A DNA stretch of 19,084 nt, from IMG/VR virus record IMGVR_UViG_2609459794_000003; one strand, written 5' to 3'. The DNA comes from a virus (taxonomy: Duplodnaviria > Heunggongvirae > Uroviricota > Caudoviricetes). The notes below the pieces were generated by a model. The model saw only the letters and a program-made list of their open reading frames with translations, was not told where the DNA came from and made no database searches. Of the stretch, positions 5,371 through 15,711 are shown in pieces; position 1 is the stretch's first letter, and every line of letters starts with the position of its first letter. The translations under genes were made by a program, and so were the position numbers.

Positions 5371-5559
5371 AACTAAGCCGCCTCGTTGAAGCGACTAAGG
5401 TATGAAATGTTGAGTTAATTTCAGCTGGTCACACCGACGTTCACGCGTCCGTTTCACCCCTCGCACTCCCCGAAGCCTGCTGAAATTCAAACTGCGGATC
5501 TAAGCGGTCATCGCAACGGTGAATCAGGTAGTTGCCGTATCGTTGTGTTGTTGCGATGA

Positions 5560-5625
5560 ACTTATTTAAAACTATAGTTGTTTTATCGTCAACAACAAAA
5601 GTTGTTTTATTGGTTGTTTTAGATA
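5560..5625 (-). promoter_or_regulatory. putative pL promoter with OL operator half-sites
   Basis: On the minus strand: -35 TTGACG (plus 5587-5592), 17-nt spacer, -10 TTAAAT (plus 5564-5569). It is flanked by repeated GTTGTT / AACAAC motifs and is nearly identical in layout to the pR region. Confidence 0.5.
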
Positions 5626-5727
5626 TAACTGGTTGTATTTAGGATGGATTTATTTTGTGACTTGAATCGCATAGCGATAACTGAAGCGAGGTTATGGTGG
5701 TTTTTTTAACGGTGTGTGATGAGGGGA

Positions 5728-5758
5728 GGGCAAAAGAAAACCCGGCACGGTGACCGGG
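5728..5758 (-). terminator. putative intrinsic terminator downstream of cI
   Basis: On the minus strand: CCCGG-ucaccgug-CCGGG followed by TTTTCTTTTG, about 120 nt downstream of the cI stop. Confidence 0.5.
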
Positions 5759-5879
5759 ATTCTTACGCCGTTAGGTAAAGATATTATTGCGGTGGCTTAA
5801 TATTACTACCTAGAGCAAAGATAGGAATTAGTTCTTTACTGAATGAGCACAATGCCCAGTTGATAATTTTTAATTGGTA

Positions 5880-6569
5880 CTACCCATGCTTCCTATATGT
5901 CTGCGGCATGCTCCCAATAACCTTACCGAAGATGAACACCCGGTTCATCTCGTCTTTCTCGATCGGGTCCCACGGTGAGTAGCTTTTGTTATCAGAGATG
6001 ACCAGCAGCTTATCCTTCATCATTTGCAGGCGCTTTACATGGGCTGTGTCGTCGTACAGAAACGCATAGATACCATCACCGTCGAAAGATTTAACTGTGA
6101 TATCAACGAACAGCAGATCACCTGGTTCGATCGTTCCTGACATGCTGTCACCACGCACGTTAATGATGCGGATATTTTCCGCCTTCCTACCATCGAACAT
6201 GTGACGAGCATCGTCAAACGAGTACTCAACCGAGCGTAGAACTTCTACAAACTCACGGTTGATGACTCCCGGCCCAGCACTGACTTCTATATCAAGAACG
6301 TCAATCTTGAAGTATTTGGAATGGCTGACAGTTGATTGTATTGGTTGCACTGTACTGTCTGACATATTTCCAACGCCAGAAGATAACCATTCTGCGCGCA
6401 CACCCAAAGCGTTCGCGATCTCCACGATTTTAGTTGTTTGATTAGCTTTCCCTGTTTCGATTTTCTGAATAGCAGCCTGGCTAACCCCGACCAAATCCCC
6501 AAGCGCCTTTTGTGTAAGGCCTCGCGCTAATCTGGCTTCTTTAAGTCTTTCTGAGAGTGTTGTTTTCAT
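5880..6569 (-). CDS. cI: CI-type prophage repressor (N-terminal HTH plus C-terminal S24 LexA-like autopeptidase)
   Basis: HTH LTQKALGDLVGVSQAAIQKIETGK; Ala-Gly cleavage-site candidate (EVSAGPG); catalytic Ser in VRGDSMSGT and Lys in AHVKRL. The start is taken at MKTTLSERL (ATG 6567-6569); the listed ORF extends 22 codons further upstream. Confidence 0.9.
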   Translation of the reverse strand: MKTTLSERLKEARLARGLTQKALGDLVGVSQAAIQKIETGKANQTTKIVEIANALGVRAEWLSSGVGNMSDSTVQPIQSTVSHSKYFKIDVLDIEVSAGPGVINREFVEVLRSVEYSFDDARHMFDGRKAENIRIINVRGDSMSGTIEPGDLLFVDITVKSFDGDGIYAFLYDDTAHVKRLQMMKDKLLVISDNKSYSPWDPIEKDEMNRVFIFGKVIGSMPQTYRKHG

Positions 6570-6580
6570 ATTCCAAATGT

Positions 6581-6672
6581 ACAACCAAGGTTTTATTCCA
6601 TCAAACGAAAATGGTTGTTGACTAAAAACAACCATAGTTTTAATCTTGATTCAAATTAACCACGGAGGTTGT
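6581..6672 (+). promoter_or_regulatory. pR promoter and OR operator region (divergent cI/cro control)
   Basis: -35 TTGACT (6618-6623), 17-nt spacer, -10 TAATCT (6641-6646). The perfect 9-7-9 palindrome ATGGTTGTT-GACTAAA-AACAACCAT (6611-6635) overlaps the -35; further GGTTGTT / ACAACC half-sites sit at about 6581-6587 and 6666-6672. Confidence 0.6.
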
Positions 6673-6673
6673 T

Positions 6674-6904
6674 ATGAACCCAGCTATCAAAACAGCGATC
6701 AATATCGTTGGTTCACAAAAGAAACTGGGCGCTGCTTGCGAAGTTTCACAGCAGGCCGTCTATAAGTGGCTTCACAACAAAGCAAAGGTATCCCCTGAAC
6801 ATGTCGGCAGCATTGTTACGGCTACTGGTGGAGTAGTGAAGGCATACCAGATTCGCCCGGATCTTCCGAAGTTGTTTCCACACACCGAAAAGAACGCAGC
6901 TTAA
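6674..6904 (+). CDS. cro: Cro-like HTH repressor
   Basis: 76-aa ORF divergent from cI with HTH GSQKKLGAACEVSQQAVYKW and GGAGG RBS at 6664-6668. Confidence 0.8.
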   Translation: MNPAIKTAINIVGSQKKLGAACEVSQQAVYKWLHNKAKVSPEHVGSIVTATGGVVKAYQIRPDLPKLFPHTEKNAA

Positions 6905-6916
6905 ATTTCCATTTCA

Positions 6917-6929
6917 CGCTCTTTAACAA
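6917..6929 (+). promoter_or_regulatory. boxA-like antitermination element (nutR position)
   Basis: CGCTCTTTAACAA immediately downstream of cro closely matches the rrn/lambdoid boxA consensus (GCTCTTTAACAA). No convincing boxB hairpin follows. Confidence 0.45.
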
Positions 6930-6973
6930 TAAGCAATCAACTTAACAGTCAATTCAAACTAAAGGAGTCAATT

Positions 6974-7513
6974 ATGCAACCACTTACATACCAACAGACT
7001 AGCGGATTTAGCCCGACTGCGGTGATAAATCGTTCTCAAACAAAACAGGTGCCAGGCCACGAAAAAATCCGTGATGCCGTCCGCGCCTGGTCGGCTGTAG
7101 ATAATCAGGATGTCGTTGCCACACTCATTGTGAATGAGTATCGGGAGCAGGGCGGCGGCACCATCGATTTCCCTGATGATGTCAGCCGTGCACGCCAGAA
7201 GCTGTTCCGCTTCCTCGATAACAAATTCGATTCTGAAAAATACCGAAATAACGTGCGTGAACTGACCCCGGCAATTCTGGCGGTACTACCGCTGGAATAT
7301 CGCGGTTACCTGGTTGAGCAGGATAGCTTCATGGCTAGGTTGGCTGAAATGGAAAAGGAACTCAGTGAGGCAAAACAGGCTGTCATTCTCAACGCACCAC
7401 GCCACCAGAAACTGAAGGAAATTAGTGAAGGTATTGTGTCGATGTTTCGTGTGGACCCAGATCTGGCTGGTCCATTGATGGCGATGGTTACTACCATGCT
7501 GGGGGCGATATGA
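6974..7513 (+). CDS. YdaT-like protein in the cII position
   Basis: 179-aa ORF with AAGGAG RBS. Motifs EYREQGGG and LTPAILAVLPLEYR resemble the Rac prophage YdaT family as recalled. Confidence 0.55.
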   Translation: MQPLTYQQTSGFSPTAVINRSQTKQVPGHEKIRDAVRAWSAVDNQDVVATLIVNEYREQGGGTIDFPDDVSRARQKLFRFLDNKFDSEKYRNNVRELTPAILAVLPLEYRGYLVEQDSFMARLAEMEKELSEAKQAVILNAPRHQKLKEISEGIVSMFRVDPDLAGPLMAMVTTMLGAI

Positions 7514-7599
7514 CAGGTTCAGAAATGGCGAAAGCCGGTCTGCTGGAACAGAACCGACTTTCAGGTGCAAATCGTAACACACTCATTGCGGGAGGAATT

Positions 7600-8529
7600 A
7601 TGGCAAACACTGCTGAGATATTCAATTTTCCAGTGCCGGATGCGGCACAAAAGGAGCCGCGCGTGGCAGATCTCGATGATGGTTATACGCGCATTGCAAA
7701 TGAGTTGCTGGAAGCTGTGATGCTGGCCGGATTAACACAGCACCAGCTTCTGGTCTTCCTGGCTGTCATGCGCAAAACATATGGCTTTAATAAAAAACTG
7801 GATTGGGTGAGCAACGAGCAACTGTCCGAATTGACCGGGATATTGCCGCACAAGTGTTCTGCTGCAAAAAGTGTTCTGGTAAAGCGTGGGATTTTGATTC
7901 AGAGCGGGCGGAATATCGGTATTAATAATGTGGTCAGTGAATGGTCAACATTACCCGAATCAGGTAAGAAAAATAAAGTTTACCTGAAAGAGGTAAATAT
8001 ACCTGAATCAGGTAAGAAAAGTTTACCCAAATCAGGTAAAGGCGTTTACCCGAATCAGGTAAACACAAAAGACAAACTAACAAAAGACAATATAAAACCT
8101 TTTTCGTCCGAGAATTCTGGCGAATCCTCTGACCAGCCAGAAAACGATCTTCCTGTGGTGAAACCGGATGCTGCAATTCAGAGCGGCAGCAAGTGGGGGA
8201 CAGCAGAAGACCTGACCGCCGCAGAGTGGATGTTTGACATGGTGAAGACTATCGCACCATCAGCCAGAAAACCGAATTTTGCTGGGTGGGCTAACGATAT
8301 CCGCCTGATGCGTGAACGTGACGGACGTAACCACCGCGACATGTGCGTGCTGTTCCGCTGGGCATGCCAGGACAACTTCTGGTCCGGTAACGTGCTAAGT
8401 CCGGCCAAACTCCGCGACAAGTGGACCCAACTCGAAATTAACCGTAACAAGCAACAGGCAGGCGTGATAGCCAGCAAACCAAAACTCGACCTGACAAACA
8501 CAGACTGGATTTACGGGGTGGATCTATGA
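7600..8529 (+). CDS. O: replication initiator O (lambda-O-like; divergent N-terminal iteron-binding domain, lambda-like C-terminus)
   Basis: GGAGG RBS at 7591-7595, then MANTAEIFNF...RVADLDDGYTRIANELLEAV...; C-terminus ...KPKLDLTNTDWIYGVDL as in lambda O. The listed ORF starts 30 codons upstream at 7510. Confidence 0.9.
   Translation: MANTAEIFNFPVPDAAQKEPRVADLDDGYTRIANELLEAVMLAGLTQHQLLVFLAVMRKTYGFNKKLDWVSNEQLSELTGILPHKCSAAKSVLVKRGILIQSGRNIGINNVVSEWSTLPESGKKNKVYLKEVNIPESGKKSLPKSGKGVYPNQVNTKDKLTKDNIKPFSSENSGESSDQPENDLPVVKPDAAIQSGSKWGTAEDLTAAEWMFDMVKTIAPSARKPNFAGWANDIRLMRERDGRNHRDMCVLFRWACQDNFWSGNVLSPAKLRDKWTQLEINRNKQQAGVIASKPKLDLTNTDWIYGVDL
7951..8105. repeat. origin of replication: four palindromic iterons plus an AT-rich segment inside the O gene
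   Basis: Direct repeats ACC(C/T)(G/A)AATCAGGTAA at 7951-7968, 7999-8016, 8022-8040 and 8045-8064, each an internal palindrome (ACCTGA-A-TCAGGT), with a degenerate copy at 7979-7996. They are followed by the A-rich tract ACACAAAAGACAAACTAACAAAAGACAATATAAAACC. Confidence 0.75.
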
Positions 8530-9227
8530 AAAACATCGCCGCACAGATGGTTAACTTTGACCGTGAGCAGATGCGTCGGATCGCCAACAACATGCCGGAA
8601 AAGTACGACGAAAAGCCGCAGGTACAGCAGGTAGCGCAGATCATCAACGGTGTGTTCAGCCAGTTACTGGCAACTTTCCCGGCGAGCCTGGCTAACCGGG
8701 ACCAGAACGAACTGAACGAAATCCGCCGCCAGTGGGTTCTGGCTTTCCGGGAAAACGGGATCACCACGATGGAACAGGTTAACGCAGGAATGCGCGTAGC
8801 CCGTCGGCAGAATCGACCATTCCTGCCATCACCCGGGCAGTTTGTTGCCTGGTGCCGGGAAGAAGCATCCGTTACCGCCGGGCTGCCAAACGCCAGCGAG
8901 CTGGTTGATATGGTTTACGAGTATTGCCGGAAACGTGGCCTGTATCCGGATGCAGAGTCTTATCCGTGGAAATCAAACGCGCACTACTGGCTGGTTACCA
9001 ACCTGTATCAGAACATGCGGGCCAATGCGCTGACTGATGCGGAATTACGGCGCAAGGCTGCCGATGAACTGGCCTGTATGACAGCGCGAATTAACCGTGA
9101 TGAGGCGATACCTGAACCAGTAAAACAACTTCCTGTCATGGGCGGTAGACCTCTAAATCGTGCACAGGCTCTGGCGAAGATCGCAGAAATCAAAGCTAAG
9201 TTTGGGCTGAAAGGAGCAAGTGTATGA
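8526..9227 (+). CDS. P: replication protein P (DnaB helicase loader), lambda-type
   Basis: 233-aa ORF MKNIAAQMVNFDREQMRRIANNMPEKYDEKPQVQQVAQIINGVFSQLLATF... matching lambda P as recalled; its start overlaps the O stop. Confidence 0.95.
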   Translation: MKNIAAQMVNFDREQMRRIANNMPEKYDEKPQVQQVAQIINGVFSQLLATFPASLANRDQNELNEIRRQWVLAFRENGITTMEQVNAGMRVARRQNRPFLPSPGQFVAWCREEASVTAGLPNASELVDMVYEYCRKRGLYPDAESYPWKSNAHYWLVTNLYQNMRANALTDAELRRKAADELACMTARINRDEAIPEPVKQLPVMGGRPLNRAQALAKIAEIKAKFGLKGASV

Positions 9228-9526
9228 CGGGCAAAGAGGCAATTATTCATTACCTGGGGACGCATAAGAGCTTCTGTGCACAGGACGTTGCCGCGGTAAC
9301 AGGCGCAACCGTAACCAGCATAAATCAGGCTGCGGCTAAAATGGCGCGGGCAGGAATCCTGGTCGTTGATGGTAAGGTCTGGCGAACGGTGTATTACCGG
9401 TTCGCTACCAGAGAAGAACGGGAAGGAAAGGTGAGCACGAATCTGATTTTTAAGGAGTGTCGCCAGAGTGCCGCGATGAAACGGGTATTGAGGGTATATA
9501 AAAGAACATCAATGGGTACACAATGA
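9224..9526 (+). CDS. ren: Ren-like protein (Rex-exclusion resistance), C-terminus divergent
   Basis: MTGKEAIIHYLGTHKSFCAQDVAAVTGATVTSINQAAAKMARAGILVVDGKVWRTVYYRFATREEREGK... matches lambda Ren as recalled; the last ~10 residues differ where the low-GC island begins. Confidence 0.8.
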   Translation: MTGKEAIIHYLGTHKSFCAQDVAAVTGATVTSINQAAAKMARAGILVVDGKVWRTVYYRFATREEREGKVSTNLIFKECRQSAAMKRVLRVYKRTSMGTQ

Positions 9527-9593
9527 TGAAACAGGTGAGTTGAGTTCAAACTGTAGTACAATTCTCTCCAGTTTGAACAGGAAAGAATATGCT

Positions 9594-9926
9594 ATGAACC
9601 CTTATATTTATCTTGGTGGTGCAATACTTGCAGAGGTCATTGGTACAACCTTAATGAAGTTTTCAGAAGGTTTTACACGGTTATGGCCATCTGTTGGTAC
9701 AATTATTTGTTATTGTGCATCATTCTGGTTATTAGCTCAGACGCTGGCTTATATTCCTACAGGGATTGCTTATGCTATCTGGTCAGGAGTCGGTATTGTC
9801 CTGATTAGCTTACTGTCATGGGGACTTTTCGGCCAACGGCTGGACCTGCCAGCCATTATAGGCATGATGTTGATTTGTGCCGGTGTGTTGGTTATTAATT
9901 TATTGTCACGAAGCACACCACATTAA
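9594..9926 (+). CDS. emrE: small multidrug resistance (SMR) efflux transporter EmrE
   Basis: 110-aa, 4-TM ORF MNPYIYLGGAILAEVIGTTLMKFSEGFTRLWPSVGTIICYCASFWLLAQTLAYIPTGIAYAIWSG... with the conserved membrane-embedded Glu in the first helix (AEVIGT). Confidence 0.95.
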   Translation: MNPYIYLGGAILAEVIGTTLMKFSEGFTRLWPSVGTIICYCASFWLLAQTLAYIPTGIAYAIWSGVGIVLISLLSWGLFGQRLDLPAIIGMMLICAGVLVINLLSRSTPH

Positions 9927-9956
9927 AATAATTTGTTTCTAAACGACTAAAATATG

Positions 9957-9996
9957 GAGGCTCTTATATTTATATGAGCCTCGTTTTATGCTTTTT
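9957..9996 (+). terminator. putative terminator after emrE
   Basis: GAGGCTC-ttatatttatat-GAGCCTC (7-bp stem) followed by GTTTTATGCTTTTT. Confidence 0.5.
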
Positions 9997-10180
9997 GTTA
10001 ATGTCTTTATTTTTTATGTATTCTTTTGTGCTTTCAAGATTATGGCGTAAGAAAATTGCAATACGATTATTGTTGTATATTCAAGATAATGTGACCTTAA
10101 TTGTCTTTTTAAATAAAAATTAAACAAAAATTATATCCCACCACTAAGGTTTATAAAAGCATACGTTAGCAGGTGTCACC

Positions 10181-11707
10181 ATGAAAAAAGCCATAGCATA
10201 TATGCGATTTTCATCACCAGGTCAGATGTCTGGTGACTCATTAAACCGACAGAGAAGACTTATTGCTGAATGGTTAAAGGTAAATAGTGATTATTATCTT
10301 GATACCATAACATATGAAGATTTAGGATTAAGTGCATTCAAAGGAAAGCATGCACAATCAGGAGCTTTTTCGGAATTTTTAGATGCTATAGAGCATGGTT
10401 ATATATTGCCAGGAACTACATTGTTAGTTGAAAGTCTGGACAGACTTTCAAGAGAAAAAGTCGGTGAAGCGATTGAACGTCTGAAATTGATTTTGAATCA
10501 CGGTATTGATGTTATAACTCTTTGCGACAATACAGTCTATAATATTGACTCTTTGAATGAGCCATATTCATTAATAAAAGCCATACTTATAGCACAAAGG
10601 GCAAATGAAGAAAGCGAGATAAAGTCAAGTCGGGTTAAATTATCATGGAAGAAAAAACGGCAGGATGCACTGGAATCAGGTACGATTATGACGGCGTCTT
10701 GTCCGAGATGGCTCTCCTTAGATGACAAAAGAACGGCTTTTGTTCCAGACCCCGACAGGGTGAAAACTATTGAGCTAATTTTTAAACTCAGGATGGAAAG
10801 GCGCTCATTGAATGCAATAGCCAAGTATTTAAATGATCATGCTGTAAAGAATTTCTCAGGAAAAGAAAGTGCATGGGGACCTTCTGTAATTGAAAAATTA
10901 TTAGCGAATAAAGCTCTGATAGGTATATGCGTACCTTCATATCGTGCAAGAGGGAAAGGGATAAGTGAAATCGCTGGCTATTATCCCAGAGTCATATCAG
11001 ATGATTTGTTTTACGCTGTACAGGAAATTCGGTTGGCACCTTTTGGTATTAGCAATAGTAGCAAGAATCCTATGCTAATAAATCTACTTCGAACAGTTAT
11101 GAAGTGTGAGGCTTGTGGTAATACCATGATTGTTCATGCGGTATCTGGAAGTTTGCATGGCTATTATGTTTGTCCGATGAGAAGATTACATCGATGTGAC
11201 AGGCCATCAATAAAAAGAGATTTGGTTGATTATAATATCATTAATGAATTGCTTTTTAATTGTAGCAAAATTCAACCAGTTGAAAACAAGAAAGATGCTA
11301 ATGAAACTTTAGAGTTAAAAATTATTGAGCTTCAGATGAAAATTAATAATTTAATCGTTGCATTGTCTGTCGCGCCTGAAGTTACCGCTATAGCAGAGAA
11401 AATAAGACTATTAGATAAGGAATTACGAAGGGCTTCGGTATCATTGAAAACTTTGAAGAGTAAAGGTGTAAATTCATTCAGTGATTTTTATGCTATTGAC
11501 TTAACCAGTAAAAATGGACGAGAGTTATGCCGTACACTTGCCTATAAAACATTCGAAAAAATCATAATTAATACGGATAATAAAACCTGTGATATCTATT
11601 TTATGAATGGCATTGTTTTTAAACACTATCCTTTAATGAAAGTAATATCCGCCCAGCAGGCGATAAGTGCTCTCAAATATATGGTTGATGGTGAGATTTA
11701 TTTCTAA
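10181..11707 (+). CDS. ybcK: large serine recombinase (resolvase/invertase catalytic domain, recombinase domain, zinc ribbon)
   Basis: 508-aa ORF with N-terminal serine-recombinase motif (AIAYMRFSSPGQ...SLNRQ), Cys cluster CEACGN...YYVCPMRRLHRCD and a C-terminal coiled-coil-like region. Low-GC gene. Confidence 0.9.
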   Translation: MKKAIAYMRFSSPGQMSGDSLNRQRRLIAEWLKVNSDYYLDTITYEDLGLSAFKGKHAQSGAFSEFLDAIEHGYILPGTTLLVESLDRLSREKVGEAIERLKLILNHGIDVITLCDNTVYNIDSLNEPYSLIKAILIAQRANEESEIKSSRVKLSWKKKRQDALESGTIMTASCPRWLSLDDKRTAFVPDPDRVKTIELIFKLRMERRSLNAIAKYLNDHAVKNFSGKESAWGPSVIEKLLANKALIGICVPSYRARGKGISEIAGYYPRVISDDLFYAVQEIRLAPFGISNSSKNPMLINLLRTVMKCEACGNTMIVHAVSGSLHGYYVCPMRRLHRCDRPSIKRDLVDYNIINELLFNCSKIQPVENKKDANETLELKIIELQMKINNLIVALSVAPEVTAIAEKIRLLDKELRRASVSLKTLKSKGVNSFSDFYAIDLTSKNGRELCRTLAYKTFEKIIINTDNKTCDIYFMNGIVFKHYPLMKVISAQQAISALKYMVDGEIYF

Positions 11708-12171
11708 ATAATGATCTCGGATTTTAAGTTATGCTATGGTGATAAAGTGCAAGACAGAATTAATTATCTTTGACGAAACTTAATGGGTAATTACTTTGTT
11801 TGCTCCCACAAGCGAGTTTTGTACGGCTGTATTGGGGTAGTAAATGAGCTATACAATCTTAATCATTTGTTAGGTGAGAACTCTTGGTCGCAGATTCAAA
11901 TACTGAAAATACGTGACAAATTATTATGAGCAAAATGGTGTATGTCACGTATTTTGAATGGTAGGTTAAAAAATAACACCGACTTTCGTAGGTATTACTA
12001 ATAATAAAGCAGAGTTTTTAGATAGTATCAATGTGCTTTGTGTATATTGTGGCAAATAATTGGGTTGGGGGTACAATTGTGATTGCTTTTGCATAAACAT
12101 TGCGCCTTTATGCATAATGAGATAAAGGAATATCAAATAAAATAACGATAGGTCATAACAAAGAGGTTTTT

Positions 12172-12723
12172 ATGAAAACACTTATCGTTTCAACTGTATT
12201 GGCATTCATAACATTTTCTGCGCAGGCTGCAGCATTTCAGGTCACTAGTAATGAAATAAAAACAGGAGAGCAACTTACAACGTCTCATGTCTTTTCTGGA
12301 TTTGGGTGTGAAGGTGGTAATACATCGCCCTCATTAACCTGGTCTGGTGTTCCTGAAGGTACCAAAAGCTTTGCCGTAACTGTATATGATCCAGATGCAC
12401 CTACAGGCAGTGGTTGGTGGCATTGGACTGTTGTTAATATTCCAGCAACAATAACATATTTGCCCGTTGATGCAGGGAGACGTGATGGAACAAAACTGCC
12501 GACTGGTGCTGTTCAAGGCCGAAATGATTTTGGCTATGCTGGGTTTGGTGGCGCATGTCCTCCTAAAGGAGATAAACCACATCATTACCAGTTTAAAGTA
12601 TGGGCTCTAAAAACTGAAAAGATTCCTGTAGATTCTAACTCCAGCGGAGCGTTAGTTGGTTATATGCTTAATGCTAATAAAATCGCAACCGCTGAGATAA
12701 CACCAGTTTATGAGATAAAGTAG
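12172..12723 (+). CDS. ybcL: secreted PEBP/RKIP-family protein (YbcL-like)
   Basis: 183-aa ORF with signal peptide MKTLIVSTVLAFITFSAQAAA and PEBP-type motifs (YDPDAP, GxHHY). Confidence 0.85.
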   Translation: MKTLIVSTVLAFITFSAQAAAFQVTSNEIKTGEQLTTSHVFSGFGCEGGNTSPSLTWSGVPEGTKSFAVTVYDPDAPTGSGWWHWTVVNIPATITYLPVDAGRRDGTKLPTGAVQGRNDFGYAGFGGACPPKGDKPHHYQFKVWALKTEKIPVDSNSSGALVGYMLNANKIATAEITPVYEIK

Positions 12724-12732
12724 GGTGAGAGT

Positions 12733-13530
12733 ATGCTGGCAAGAGGTAAGACTAACTTAAAGATCGAAGAAATACGGATGCATAAACATCATGAGATTCA
12801 TAGGGTTAAGCCTCTTATGCCAGCTTTGTGTCGTATCCGTCAGGGAAAGAAAGTTATCAATTGGGAGACGCATACTTTAACTGTTGATAATAATCAAATA
12901 ATATTATTTCCTTGTGGTTATGAATTTTATATTGAGAATTATCCTGAAGCAGGGCTTTATCTTGCAGAAATGCTTTACTTACCCATTGATTTAATTGAGA
13001 GTTTCCAAAAACTTTATACGGTAACTGATCAAATACGTAACAAAACAAGTTTCTTTTTACCTCAGAATCCTGAGTTAATATATTGTTGGGAGCAACTAAA
13101 AACATCTGTTTCCCGAGGCTTCTCAACTAAAATTCAGGAGCACTTAGCAATGGGCGTTCTACTTTCGTTAGGAGTGAATCATGTTAATCATTTACTTTTA
13201 TCATATAGTAAACAATCATTGATAAGTCGTTGTTATAACCTGCTGCTATCCGAACCCGGCACAAAATGGACAGCAAACAAGGTTGCTCGATATCTCTACA
13301 TTTCTGTTTCTACATTACATCGCCGTCTAGCAAGCGAGGGGGTAAGTTTCCAAAGTATACTGGACGATGTGAGGTTAAATAATGCGTTGTCTGCTATACA
13401 AACGACGGTAAAACCTATAAGCGAGATTGCCAGAGAAAATGGTTATAAGTGTCCTTCTCGTTTTACTGAAAGATTTCATAATCGTTTTAATATAACACCA
13501 AGAGAGATAAGAAAAGCTTCCAGAGAGTAA
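12733..13530 (+). CDS. ybcM: AraC/XylS-family transcriptional regulator (YbcM-like)
   Basis: 265-aa ORF with C-terminal AraC-type double HTH (...[40 protein letters not shown]...[30 protein letters not shown]...). Confidence 0.8.
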
Positions 13531-13646
13531 AAGTGTTTTAAGAAGGAGCAATTCTATCGATTTTGATTTTGGGAAATCAACACGGCATAATTATGTCACC
13601 GGAGCCTGAACAACTCCGGTGACTTCTGCGCTAAACGGGGACGTTT

Positions 13647-15612: not shown

Positions 15613-15711
15613 TTAAAGGAAAAGTTGCTGTCTGATTCTCATTAGTCTAACATTTTAAATGTTGGAATCGCAACGTAGTTATTATCATATAACAGCTTGT
15701 TTCCTGATTTA

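Follow-up and report, generated by a model that had tools for sequence, protein, structure and literature searches.

Gene Order and Surroundings of the cII-like Gene

The window, i.e. the whole stretch of 19,084 nucleotides analysed here (IMG/VR virus record IMGVR_UViG_2609459794_000003), contains a lambdoid immunity and replication region with the gene order cI-cro-cII-O-P-ren, as judged from open reading frames, Pfam matches and RefSeq annotation. The preliminary description of this DNA had placed a 179-aa open reading frame at 6974–7513 as the first gene after cro, and the frame is present at exactly these coordinates (Table 1). It lies immediately 3′ of a cro-like gene that diverges from the repressor gene, and an O-like (PF04492) and a P-like (PF06992) replication gene are found 3′ of it. 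The Shine-Dalgarno sequence ahead of the same ATG is kept in relatives of the gene. The 4-kb immunity/replication stretch 5600–9600 has a 100% identical counterpart in the E. coli KH_005 chromosome, where it is part of a DLP12-like prophage located beside tRNA-Arg/intD with its immunity region intact; the RefSeq name of the same CDS in KH_005 is “toxin YdaT domain-containing protein”. Of 5426 complete E. coli genomes, ca. 1450 contain at least 80% of the 4-kb stretch.

Table 1. Positions of genes, predicted regulatory elements and protein segments in the window.
Feature	Position	Strand	Basis and remarks
CI-type repressor gene	5880..6569	-	Pfam HTH_3 and S24 peptidase; start 6569 per RefSeq
Cro-like gene, 76 aa, YdaS family HTH	6674..6904	+	PF15943 YdaS_toxin 4e-17; P22_Cro 8e-5; HTH_3; phrog_35
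Shine-Dalgarno sequence AAGGAG of the cII-like gene	6962-6967	+	6 nt 5′ of the ATG; sequence inspection
cII-like gene	6974..7513	+	ATG start, 179 aa; phi80-type CII, YdaT family
Predicted -10 element TAGTCT of a -35-less establishment promoter (pRE analogue)	7001 to 6996	-	conservation
Predicted CII (YdaT-type) operator GTGATAAATCGTTCTCAA, codons 17-22	7022-7039		8/12 to TTGATT-N6-AATCAA; conservation
HTH (POU-like) DNA-binding domain, residues 29-112	7058..7309	+	AF2; alignments to 8bt1/3c4r and Rac YdaT
Predicted recognition helix, residues 70-82	7181-7219	+	AF2 and alignments
Arg79 codon	7208-7210	+	aligned with Rac YdaT R57
Long helix of residues 119-138, matched by position to YdaT alpha6	7328..7387	+	AF2, pLDDT 84-89 in this part
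M3/oop-like antisense RNA region	7514..7625	-	promoter-like TTGAAT-17-CATAAT (7625 to 7597), hairpin 7530-7562
O-type replication initiator, likely true start	7600..8529	+	aligned phi80 gene 15 start; PF04492, phrog_277
Promoter-like TTGATT-17-CATAAT ahead of ylcH/ybcN-ninE-rusA-Q	13563..13591	+	promoter scan
Perfect YdaT operator TTGATTTTGGGAAATCAA over the -35 element and spacer of the nin/Q promoter	13563-13580		exact TTGATT-N6-AATCAA

The spacer between cro and the cII-like gene is 69 nt long (6905–6973) and AT-rich, and contains an exact 8-nt direct repeat, AGTCAATT (6947–6954 and 6966–6973). The cI–cro intergenic region (6570–6673) carries operator-like repeats ACAACCAAGGTTTTATTC / ACAACCATAGTTTTAATC, located at 6581–6645, a palindrome ATGGTTGTT-N7-AACAACCAT and a pR-like TTGACT-17-TAATCT promoter. 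The longest open reading frame of cI starts at 6635, versus the RefSeq start at 6569. No open reading frame of at least 40 aa was found in 5371–5879, between a kil-like gene and cI, the place at which lambda and phi80 have N. This segment holds only a minus-strand terminator-like hairpin (5758 to 5741), with no Rfam match from position 5400 on, and may reflect an N-independent, possibly RNA-based, mode of antitermination. At the other end of the replication genes, between ren and the nin module, lies a cargo island (9540–13530) with emrE (SMR efflux), ylcJ, ybcK (a 508-aa serine recombinase), ybcL and ybcM (AraC-type), as is the case in DLP12 of K-12. Related prophages carry other cargo at this place, including anti-phage genes for a phosphoribosyltransferase-like protein/NADAR, HEPN and a SNIPE-associated domain protein.

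The replication initiator had been described as directly following the cII-like gene. The O-like gene is indeed the next one, but the two are probably not contiguous. The longest O reading frame, with its start at 7510, shares bases with the cII stop codon, while the homologues of phi80, mEp237, HK225 and PHB10 start at a site that aligns with 7600 (ATGGCAAAC, with GGGAGG ahead of it), and the PHROG and Pfam matches of O begin at residues 31–51 of the long frame. Taken together, the aligned start and the position of the matches argue for an 86-nt spacer between cII and O; the start at 7510 is probably wrong, the likely one being that at 7600. The 86 nt past the cII stop (7514–7599) align with the annotated M3 (oop-like) RNA region of phi80. 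They contain the hairpin at 7530–7562, the stem of which is kept paired by changes seen in relatives; the predicted fold has an energy of -25.9 kcal/mol (z -2.5). A scan of 5400–9700 against Rfam at E ≤ 1 retrieved no family, the M3/oop-like region included. An oop/M3-like antisense RNA gene would be situated 3′ of the cII stop codon, as in phi80.

Family Assignment

The preliminary description had seen motifs of the Rac YdaT family, as opposed to those of a lambda-type CII activator, in the 179-aa protein, and profile searches against both families came out as predicted there, with YdaT assigned and CII not. Residues 67–154 match the Pfam model PF06254 (YdaT_toxin) with an E value of 8.5e-30 and 103.5 bits versus a cut-off of 21, whereas no Pfam match at E ≤ 1 was obtained with PF05269, the family of lambda CII (PDB 1xwr, 1zs4). 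In PHROGs, residues 17–179 match phrog_163, “CII-like transcriptional activator”, with an E value of 3.9e-67. When Rac YdaT was compared by hhalign with a profile of 50 homologues, residues 29–121 aligned with residues 3–95 at 97.3% probability (E 2.7e-11, 34% identity). The same comparison with lambda CII, whose query sequence was checked against 1xwr, gave a probability of 1.9%, i.e. no homology was detected. A search of solved structures with the single sequence retrieved only CP-933P YdaT (8bt1) and 3c4r, as weak matches with E values of 0.002–0.004; with the 50-homologue profile, the values became 6e-8 for 8bt1 and 9e-7 for 3c4r. Neither NCBIfam nor PADLOC has a model that matches the protein, and weak Pfam matches to TraQ and Sugarporin_N, both under their own cut-offs, were disregarded. 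The upstream Cro-like protein matches PF15943 (YdaS_toxin), and the two genes are therefore a YdaS/YdaT-type pair. Judged by its sequence, the 179-aa protein is a member of the YdaT / phi80-CII family (PF06254, PHROG 163) and is unrelated to lambda CII.

Predicted Architecture of the Protein

The AF2 model (overall pLDDT 69.8, i.e. moderate) is all-helical from residue 29, and residues 1–28 are predicted to be disordered. In the model, the DNA-binding domain is made up of helices 29–41, 45–58, 70–82, 88–95, 98–102 and 107–112. A Foldseek search of the PDB with the model gave 8bt1_D as the top and only significant match (probability 0.99, TM 0.36/0.45). The structure of CP-933P YdaT consists of a POU-like HTH domain and helix alpha6, which forms a four-helix-bundle tetramer (Prolic-Kalinsek et al., PMC9986795). 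In the predicted recognition helix, Arg79 is invariant among 50 homologues and aligns with R57 of Rac YdaT, the double mutant H56A/R57A of which has lost DNA binding (PMC11879457). We match the helix of residues 119–138 to the alpha6 tetramerisation helix by its position in the model, as the sequence alignments to Rac and CP-933P YdaT stop at residues 106–125, short of this helix. It is followed by two more conserved helices (143–178) that are absent from Rac and CP-933P YdaT. Compared with these 140–141 aa proteins, the phi80 type has a conserved N-terminal extension of 28 residues and ca. 40 additional C-terminal residues. The protein would then have a POU-like HTH domain (residues ca. 29–112) and, after it, a long helix that assembles the tetramer.

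Relatives of the Protein in Phages and Prophages

When 50,697 phage records were searched by tblastn, an identical protein was found under the annotation cII in Escherichia phage PhiR34_1; among the matches listed, 15 further records, from 12 E. coli phages, are 95–99% identical. Identity is 66–67% to phi80 cII and mEp237 CII (66% over the full length for phi80 CII, JX871397 PHI80_49, which has 180 versus 179 aa), 52% to HK225/HK639 cII and 38% to an Aeromonas phage protein. The CII proteins of phi80, mEp237, HK225 and HK639 (PHROG 163) are likewise encoded between cro and an O-like gene. In phi80, cII is flanked by gene 30 (cro) and by M3 RNA/gene 15 (O), so that the M3/oop-like RNA region lies 3′ of cII, as in the window. 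The N-terminal 28 residues and the two C-terminal helices are also conserved in the phi80 type, while the neighbouring cI and cro alleles of these relatives are unlike those found here. Most of them have a GC hairpin and the sequence taaccacgaaagggaaagca ahead of the cII ATG, both absent from the window. The hairpin (gccgcttaacggcggc) and ctaaccacgaaagggaaagca are located just 5′ of cII in most phi80-type loci (L001, L003–L005, L012–L018 and others), whichever cro allele is present; this version of the spacer or that of the window might be nutR- or tR1-like. A gene of the family holds the cro-adjacent position in more than 40 Enterobacteriaceae loci, beside differing cro and replication modules.

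CP-933P YdaT (141 aa; 8bt1, also 3c4r) belongs to the same Pfam family, with ca. 26% identity, and shares the recognition-helix residues R..QK.FR.LD with the protein studied here. Its gene has the same position and begins with an operator motif of the type predicted here. It differs from the phi80 type in lacking the 28-aa N-terminal extension and the C-terminal helices of ca. 40 aa. Rac YdaT (E. coli K-12 b1358, 140 aa) keeps the critical Arg and binds the host gene rcsA, being toxic when induced (PMC11879457). In CP-933P, the operator extends over the start codon and the last bases of ydaS, whereas the one predicted here lies inside the coding region.

The CII protein of lambda is a tetrameric HTH activator of 97 aa whose gene is located right after cro. 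It activates a leftward promoter whose elements are found in the first part of cII itself, and a gene for a small antisense RNA lies 3′. The protein studied here would work alike, as a cro-adjacent activator with a leftward promoter and an antisense RNA gene, but has no detectable sequence homology to lambda CII. The lambda CII site consists of direct repeats TTGC-N6-TTGC at the -35 position of pRE; this pattern has zero occurrences in the whole window.

A Candidate Operator and Leftward Promoter in the First 22 Codons

CP-933P YdaT footprints on TTGATT-N6-AATCAA at the ydaS/ydaT junction (PMC9986795), and the Rac YdaT box ATGATTcatgaaAATCAA, which overlaps the ydaT ATG, is required for a 29-fold activation of leftward transcription (Wons et al., PMC11879457). 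We compared 47 non-redundant genes of the phi80 type, taken from phages and from genomes of Enterobacteriaceae. Synonymous divergence in codons 1–24 is 0.22–0.34, versus 0.46 gene-wide. The codon for Ile18 is the rare ATA in 43 of the 47 genes, with Ile32 encoded by ATC or ATT. Bases that are invariant despite differing amino acids are found in NTG-ATA (codons 17–18), in NNT-CAA (codons 21–22) and at A23, T27 and A28 (counted from the ATG). The invariant bases of codons 17–22 read TGATA-N8-TCAA and thereby reproduce the core of the YdaT operator. At offset +48, the 18-mer agrees with TTGATT-N6-AATCAA at 8 or more of 12 positions in 44 of 51 loci, versus 0.4% of background positions, and in some loci the agreement is 10/12, as in mEp237 (ATGATAAATCGCAATCAA). 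The second invariant group reads TAnnnT on the minus strand, positions 1, 2 and 6 of the hexamer being fixed in all 47 genes although the codons vary. These are the three key positions of the σ70 -10 hexamer.

The distance between the two elements is also conserved. In 49 of 50 non-redundant loci, a set that includes Rac, CP-933P-like, Klebsiella, Aeromonas and Stenotrophomonas versions, TAnnnT and the box are separated by exactly 20 nt; at any other offset TAnnnT is present in at most 27 of the 50. Among Rac-type junctions of an IMG/VR set, the hexamer lies at 20–21 nt in 32 of 32, in five spacer classes that cannot be aligned with one another, and in an independent IMG/VR set of Stenotrophomonas-type junctions it lies at exactly 20 nt in 58 of 58, the distance from the box to the ATG being 38–55 nt. 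Rac YdaT has the same box-plus-TAnnnT geometry as is predicted for the gene in the window. A minus-strand -10 element TATGAT is present exactly 20 nt to the left of the footprinted YdaT-box in Rac (locus L010, E. coli K-12, 2152–2195) and in a CP-933P-like phage (locus L062, 1459–1502).

With the hexamer at -12 to -7, the box occupies -33 to -50, its centre falls at -41.5, and a -35 hexamer is absent. An activator site centred at -41.5 in the absence of a -35 element is the geometry of class II activator-dependent promoters. Leftward transcription would start at ca. 6989 and proceed through cro toward cI. A σ70 scan around cro–cII revealed no consensus leftward promoter; since this is what one expects of an activator-dependent promoter, the -10 element was sought by conservation. 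The PRE933P reporter fragment that responds to CP-933P YdaT starts ca. 18 nt beyond the box, and with its end there, the activated promoter has to be located to the left of the box, in agreement with the -41.5 geometry.

The two motifs of the window itself are weak, the box agreeing at 8/12 and the -10 element only at TAnnnT. When the window was scanned with a composite of the box and TAnnnT, six matches were found versus five expected. As the composite motif is not specific in the window taken by itself, the assignment of the operator and promoter rests on conservation. Matches to TTGATT-N6-AATCAA with up to three mismatches are not enriched in the window either (27 found versus 17.6 ± 4.3 expected), and for this reason 6646–6663 and 6923–6940 cannot be called operator sites. 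We also considered the repeat AGTCAATT (TTGACT on the minus strand) as a -35 element of pRE, but there is no usable -10 element at 15–18 nt from it, and the spacer is not common to relatives. Part of the conservation of codons 1–24 could also stem from demands of the N-terminal peptide or of translation initiation. An operator and a -10 element embedded in the first 22 codons would explain why the phi80 type has a conserved and yet predicted-disordered extension of 28 residues that is absent from Rac YdaT.

In the experimental papers on CP-933P and Rac YdaT cited here, we found neither a description of a fixed -41.5 architecture nor a start site mapped under YdaT induction. For Rac, a predicted promoter ca. 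190 bp away, PracR4, was proposed to be the one activated, with YdaT acting “from a distance” (PMC11879457). The comparison presented here suggests that the YdaT-activated promoter of Rac and CP-933P adjoins the box and is not located ca. 190 bp away.

A Perfect Operator Match in Front of the nin/Q Module

The only perfect TTGATT-N6-AATCAA sequence in the window, where 0.01 is expected by chance, is located at the promoter-like element ahead of the genes ylcH/ybcN-ninE-ybcO-rusA-ylcG-Q. The annotation of phage 82 (X92588) gives the same -35 and -10 hexamers as a putative promoter. Homology among prophages with different upstream cargo begins exactly at this box. Its half-sites are kept while the 6-bp spacer varies, as can be seen by comparing the window with phage 82, four other E. 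coli prophages, HK639, KO-TP1, CobraSix and phi80; in the latter, the box reads TTGATA-N6-TATCAA and is the single best box in the genome. Twenty phage records have a match that extends across the box; 18 of these are among the records listed with a phi80-type cII, the remaining two being phage 82, represented by a 2.3-kb partial record, and PhiR68_2, which is outside the cII matches listed. The cI and cro alleles of phages with this box differ. The conserved YdaT-type CII is therefore the best candidate ligand.

If CII binds at -35 to -18, it might repress the nin/Q promoter; we put this forward as a hypothesis, in which the functional outcome would resemble that of lambda paQ, which delays Q. 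A box-plus-TAnnnT match just after Q (15632–15649) was considered as a paQ analogue and rejected, as it is not conserved in related prophages. Downstream of the nin/Q promoter there is a hairpin (13595–13623) with a 10-bp stem and an invariant loop, CCTGAACAA, in which pairing is maintained in relatives by changes on both arms. It is annotated as a “possible regulator-binding site” in phage 82 and as “IR4” in phi80.

For the family as a whole, these comparisons may point to an operator centred at -41.5 upstream of a leftward promoter with no -35 element, contained in the phi80 type within codons 1–22 of cII, together with a second operator at the nin/Q module through which CII would directly repress the way to the late genes. 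We offer this scheme tentatively, rating its chances as somewhat below even.

A Probable Regulator of Lysogeny and Alternative Readings

On the evidence of sequence and predicted structure, we consider it highly probable that the gene encodes the CII-equivalent regulator of lysogeny establishment, of the YdaT / phi80-CII family, in a DLP12/phi80-like lambdoid prophage. The protein would be made from pR after Cro, and its binding site, an inverted repeat of the type TTGATT-N6-AATCAA, would lie at the start of the gene that encodes it. Binding would activate an otherwise silent leftward promoter, with the transcript running antisense through cro into the repressor gene, the presumed target of establishment transcription. 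The regulon may exceed pRE alone, since Rac YdaT also binds the cI–cro intergenic region and a host promoter (PMC11879457).

One can ask whether the protein is instead mainly a repressor of rightward promoters, namely of pR/cro and of the nin/Q-module promoter. The perfect operator at -35 to -18 of TTGATT-17-CATAAT (13563–13591), conserved with a variable spacer, is what one would expect in this case, as is the footprint of Rac YdaT on the ydaS promoter region (PMC11879457). A 10/12 match at 6646–6663, just past the pR-like -10 element, points the same way, but matches with two mismatches such as this one are expected by chance in 19 kb. In both relatives studied, however, what is clearly seen in vivo is that leftward transcription is activated, and PR, PRM and PL reporters were unchanged by CP-933P YdaT (PMC8630535). 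Activation and repression are not mutually exclusive. We judge a mainly repressive role to be improbable, and prefer the reading of the protein as an activator of repressor establishment.

The names in databases (PF06254 “Bacterial toxin ydaT”, PF15943 “YdaS_toxin”, as well as the RefSeq product name) would make the protein the toxin of a YdaS/YdaT toxin-antitoxin pair. That a debate exists over whether the Rac proteins act as toxins or as CII analogues had been mentioned in the preliminary description, and this was accurate (mSphere 2017–2018: PMC5700377, PMC5700373, PMC5917428). Rac YdaS and YdaT were called toxins in 2017 (PMC5700373, PMC5700377), and derepression or overexpression of Rac ydaS/ydaT does lead to growth arrest and filamentation (PMC5700377, PMC5700373, PMC11879457). 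Jobling traced the toxin-antitoxin label to a 2007 prediction and argued that the Rac proteins are the equivalents of Cro and CII (PMC5917428); overproduced lambda CII is toxic as well (as cited in PMC5917428). Jurenas et al. then found CP-933P YdaT to be non-toxic, showed that the pair is not a toxin-antitoxin module, and demonstrated activation of the otherwise silent leftward promoter PRE933P (PMC8630535), and the toxicity of Rac YdaT acts through transcriptional activation of rcsA (PMC11879457). The YdaT proteins of CP-933P and Rac bind DNA, form tetramers and switch on a promoter directed leftward to the repressor gene (PMC8630535, PMC9986795, PMC11879457). The literature of 2018–2025 largely settles the debate in favour of a tetrameric HTH activator of a leftward, repressor-establishing promoter. 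For the protein in the window, the DNA-binding fold recovered by Foldseek, hhalign and profile searches and solved for CP-933P YdaT (PMC9986795), the absence of a PADLOC match and the presence of the gene in the cII position of functional, plaque-forming phages all speak against a toxin. Any toxicity upon overexpression would be a by-product of the action of a transcription factor, as it is for lambda CII. In the case of the phi80 type, we know of nothing comparable to the rcsA binding and toxicity of Rac YdaT. The toxin reading, already largely refuted, is very improbable. Least probable of all, and already disfavoured, is an accessory role in the replication module (e.g. as a regulator of O/ori) with the cII position occupied by chance: the gene is translationally close to O, and many E. 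coli prophages have inherited it together with O/P, but in relatives it precedes unrelated modules (DnaC-type, helicase-type or primosomal), it is linked to cro and the immunity region rather than to O, and it has the fold of a DNA-binding regulator with an operator defined in relatives.

The identification of this YdaT protein as a CII is therefore correct and was already known, the homology of YdaT to phi80 CII having been recognised earlier (PMC8630535); the gene is an ordinary regulator of an already-described kind. What may be new is only the comparative geometry of the promoter and operator and the operator of the nin module. A very common E. coli prophage gene, present in about a quarter of complete genomes, carries the name of a toxin but is most probably the lysis–lysogeny regulator of a phi80/DLP12-like phage. 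If the geometry is confirmed, the YdaT-activated promoter of Rac and CP-933P would have to be relocated, and if the nin-module operator is confirmed together with it, a CII family distinct from that of lambda would gain a defined regulon and a mechanism.
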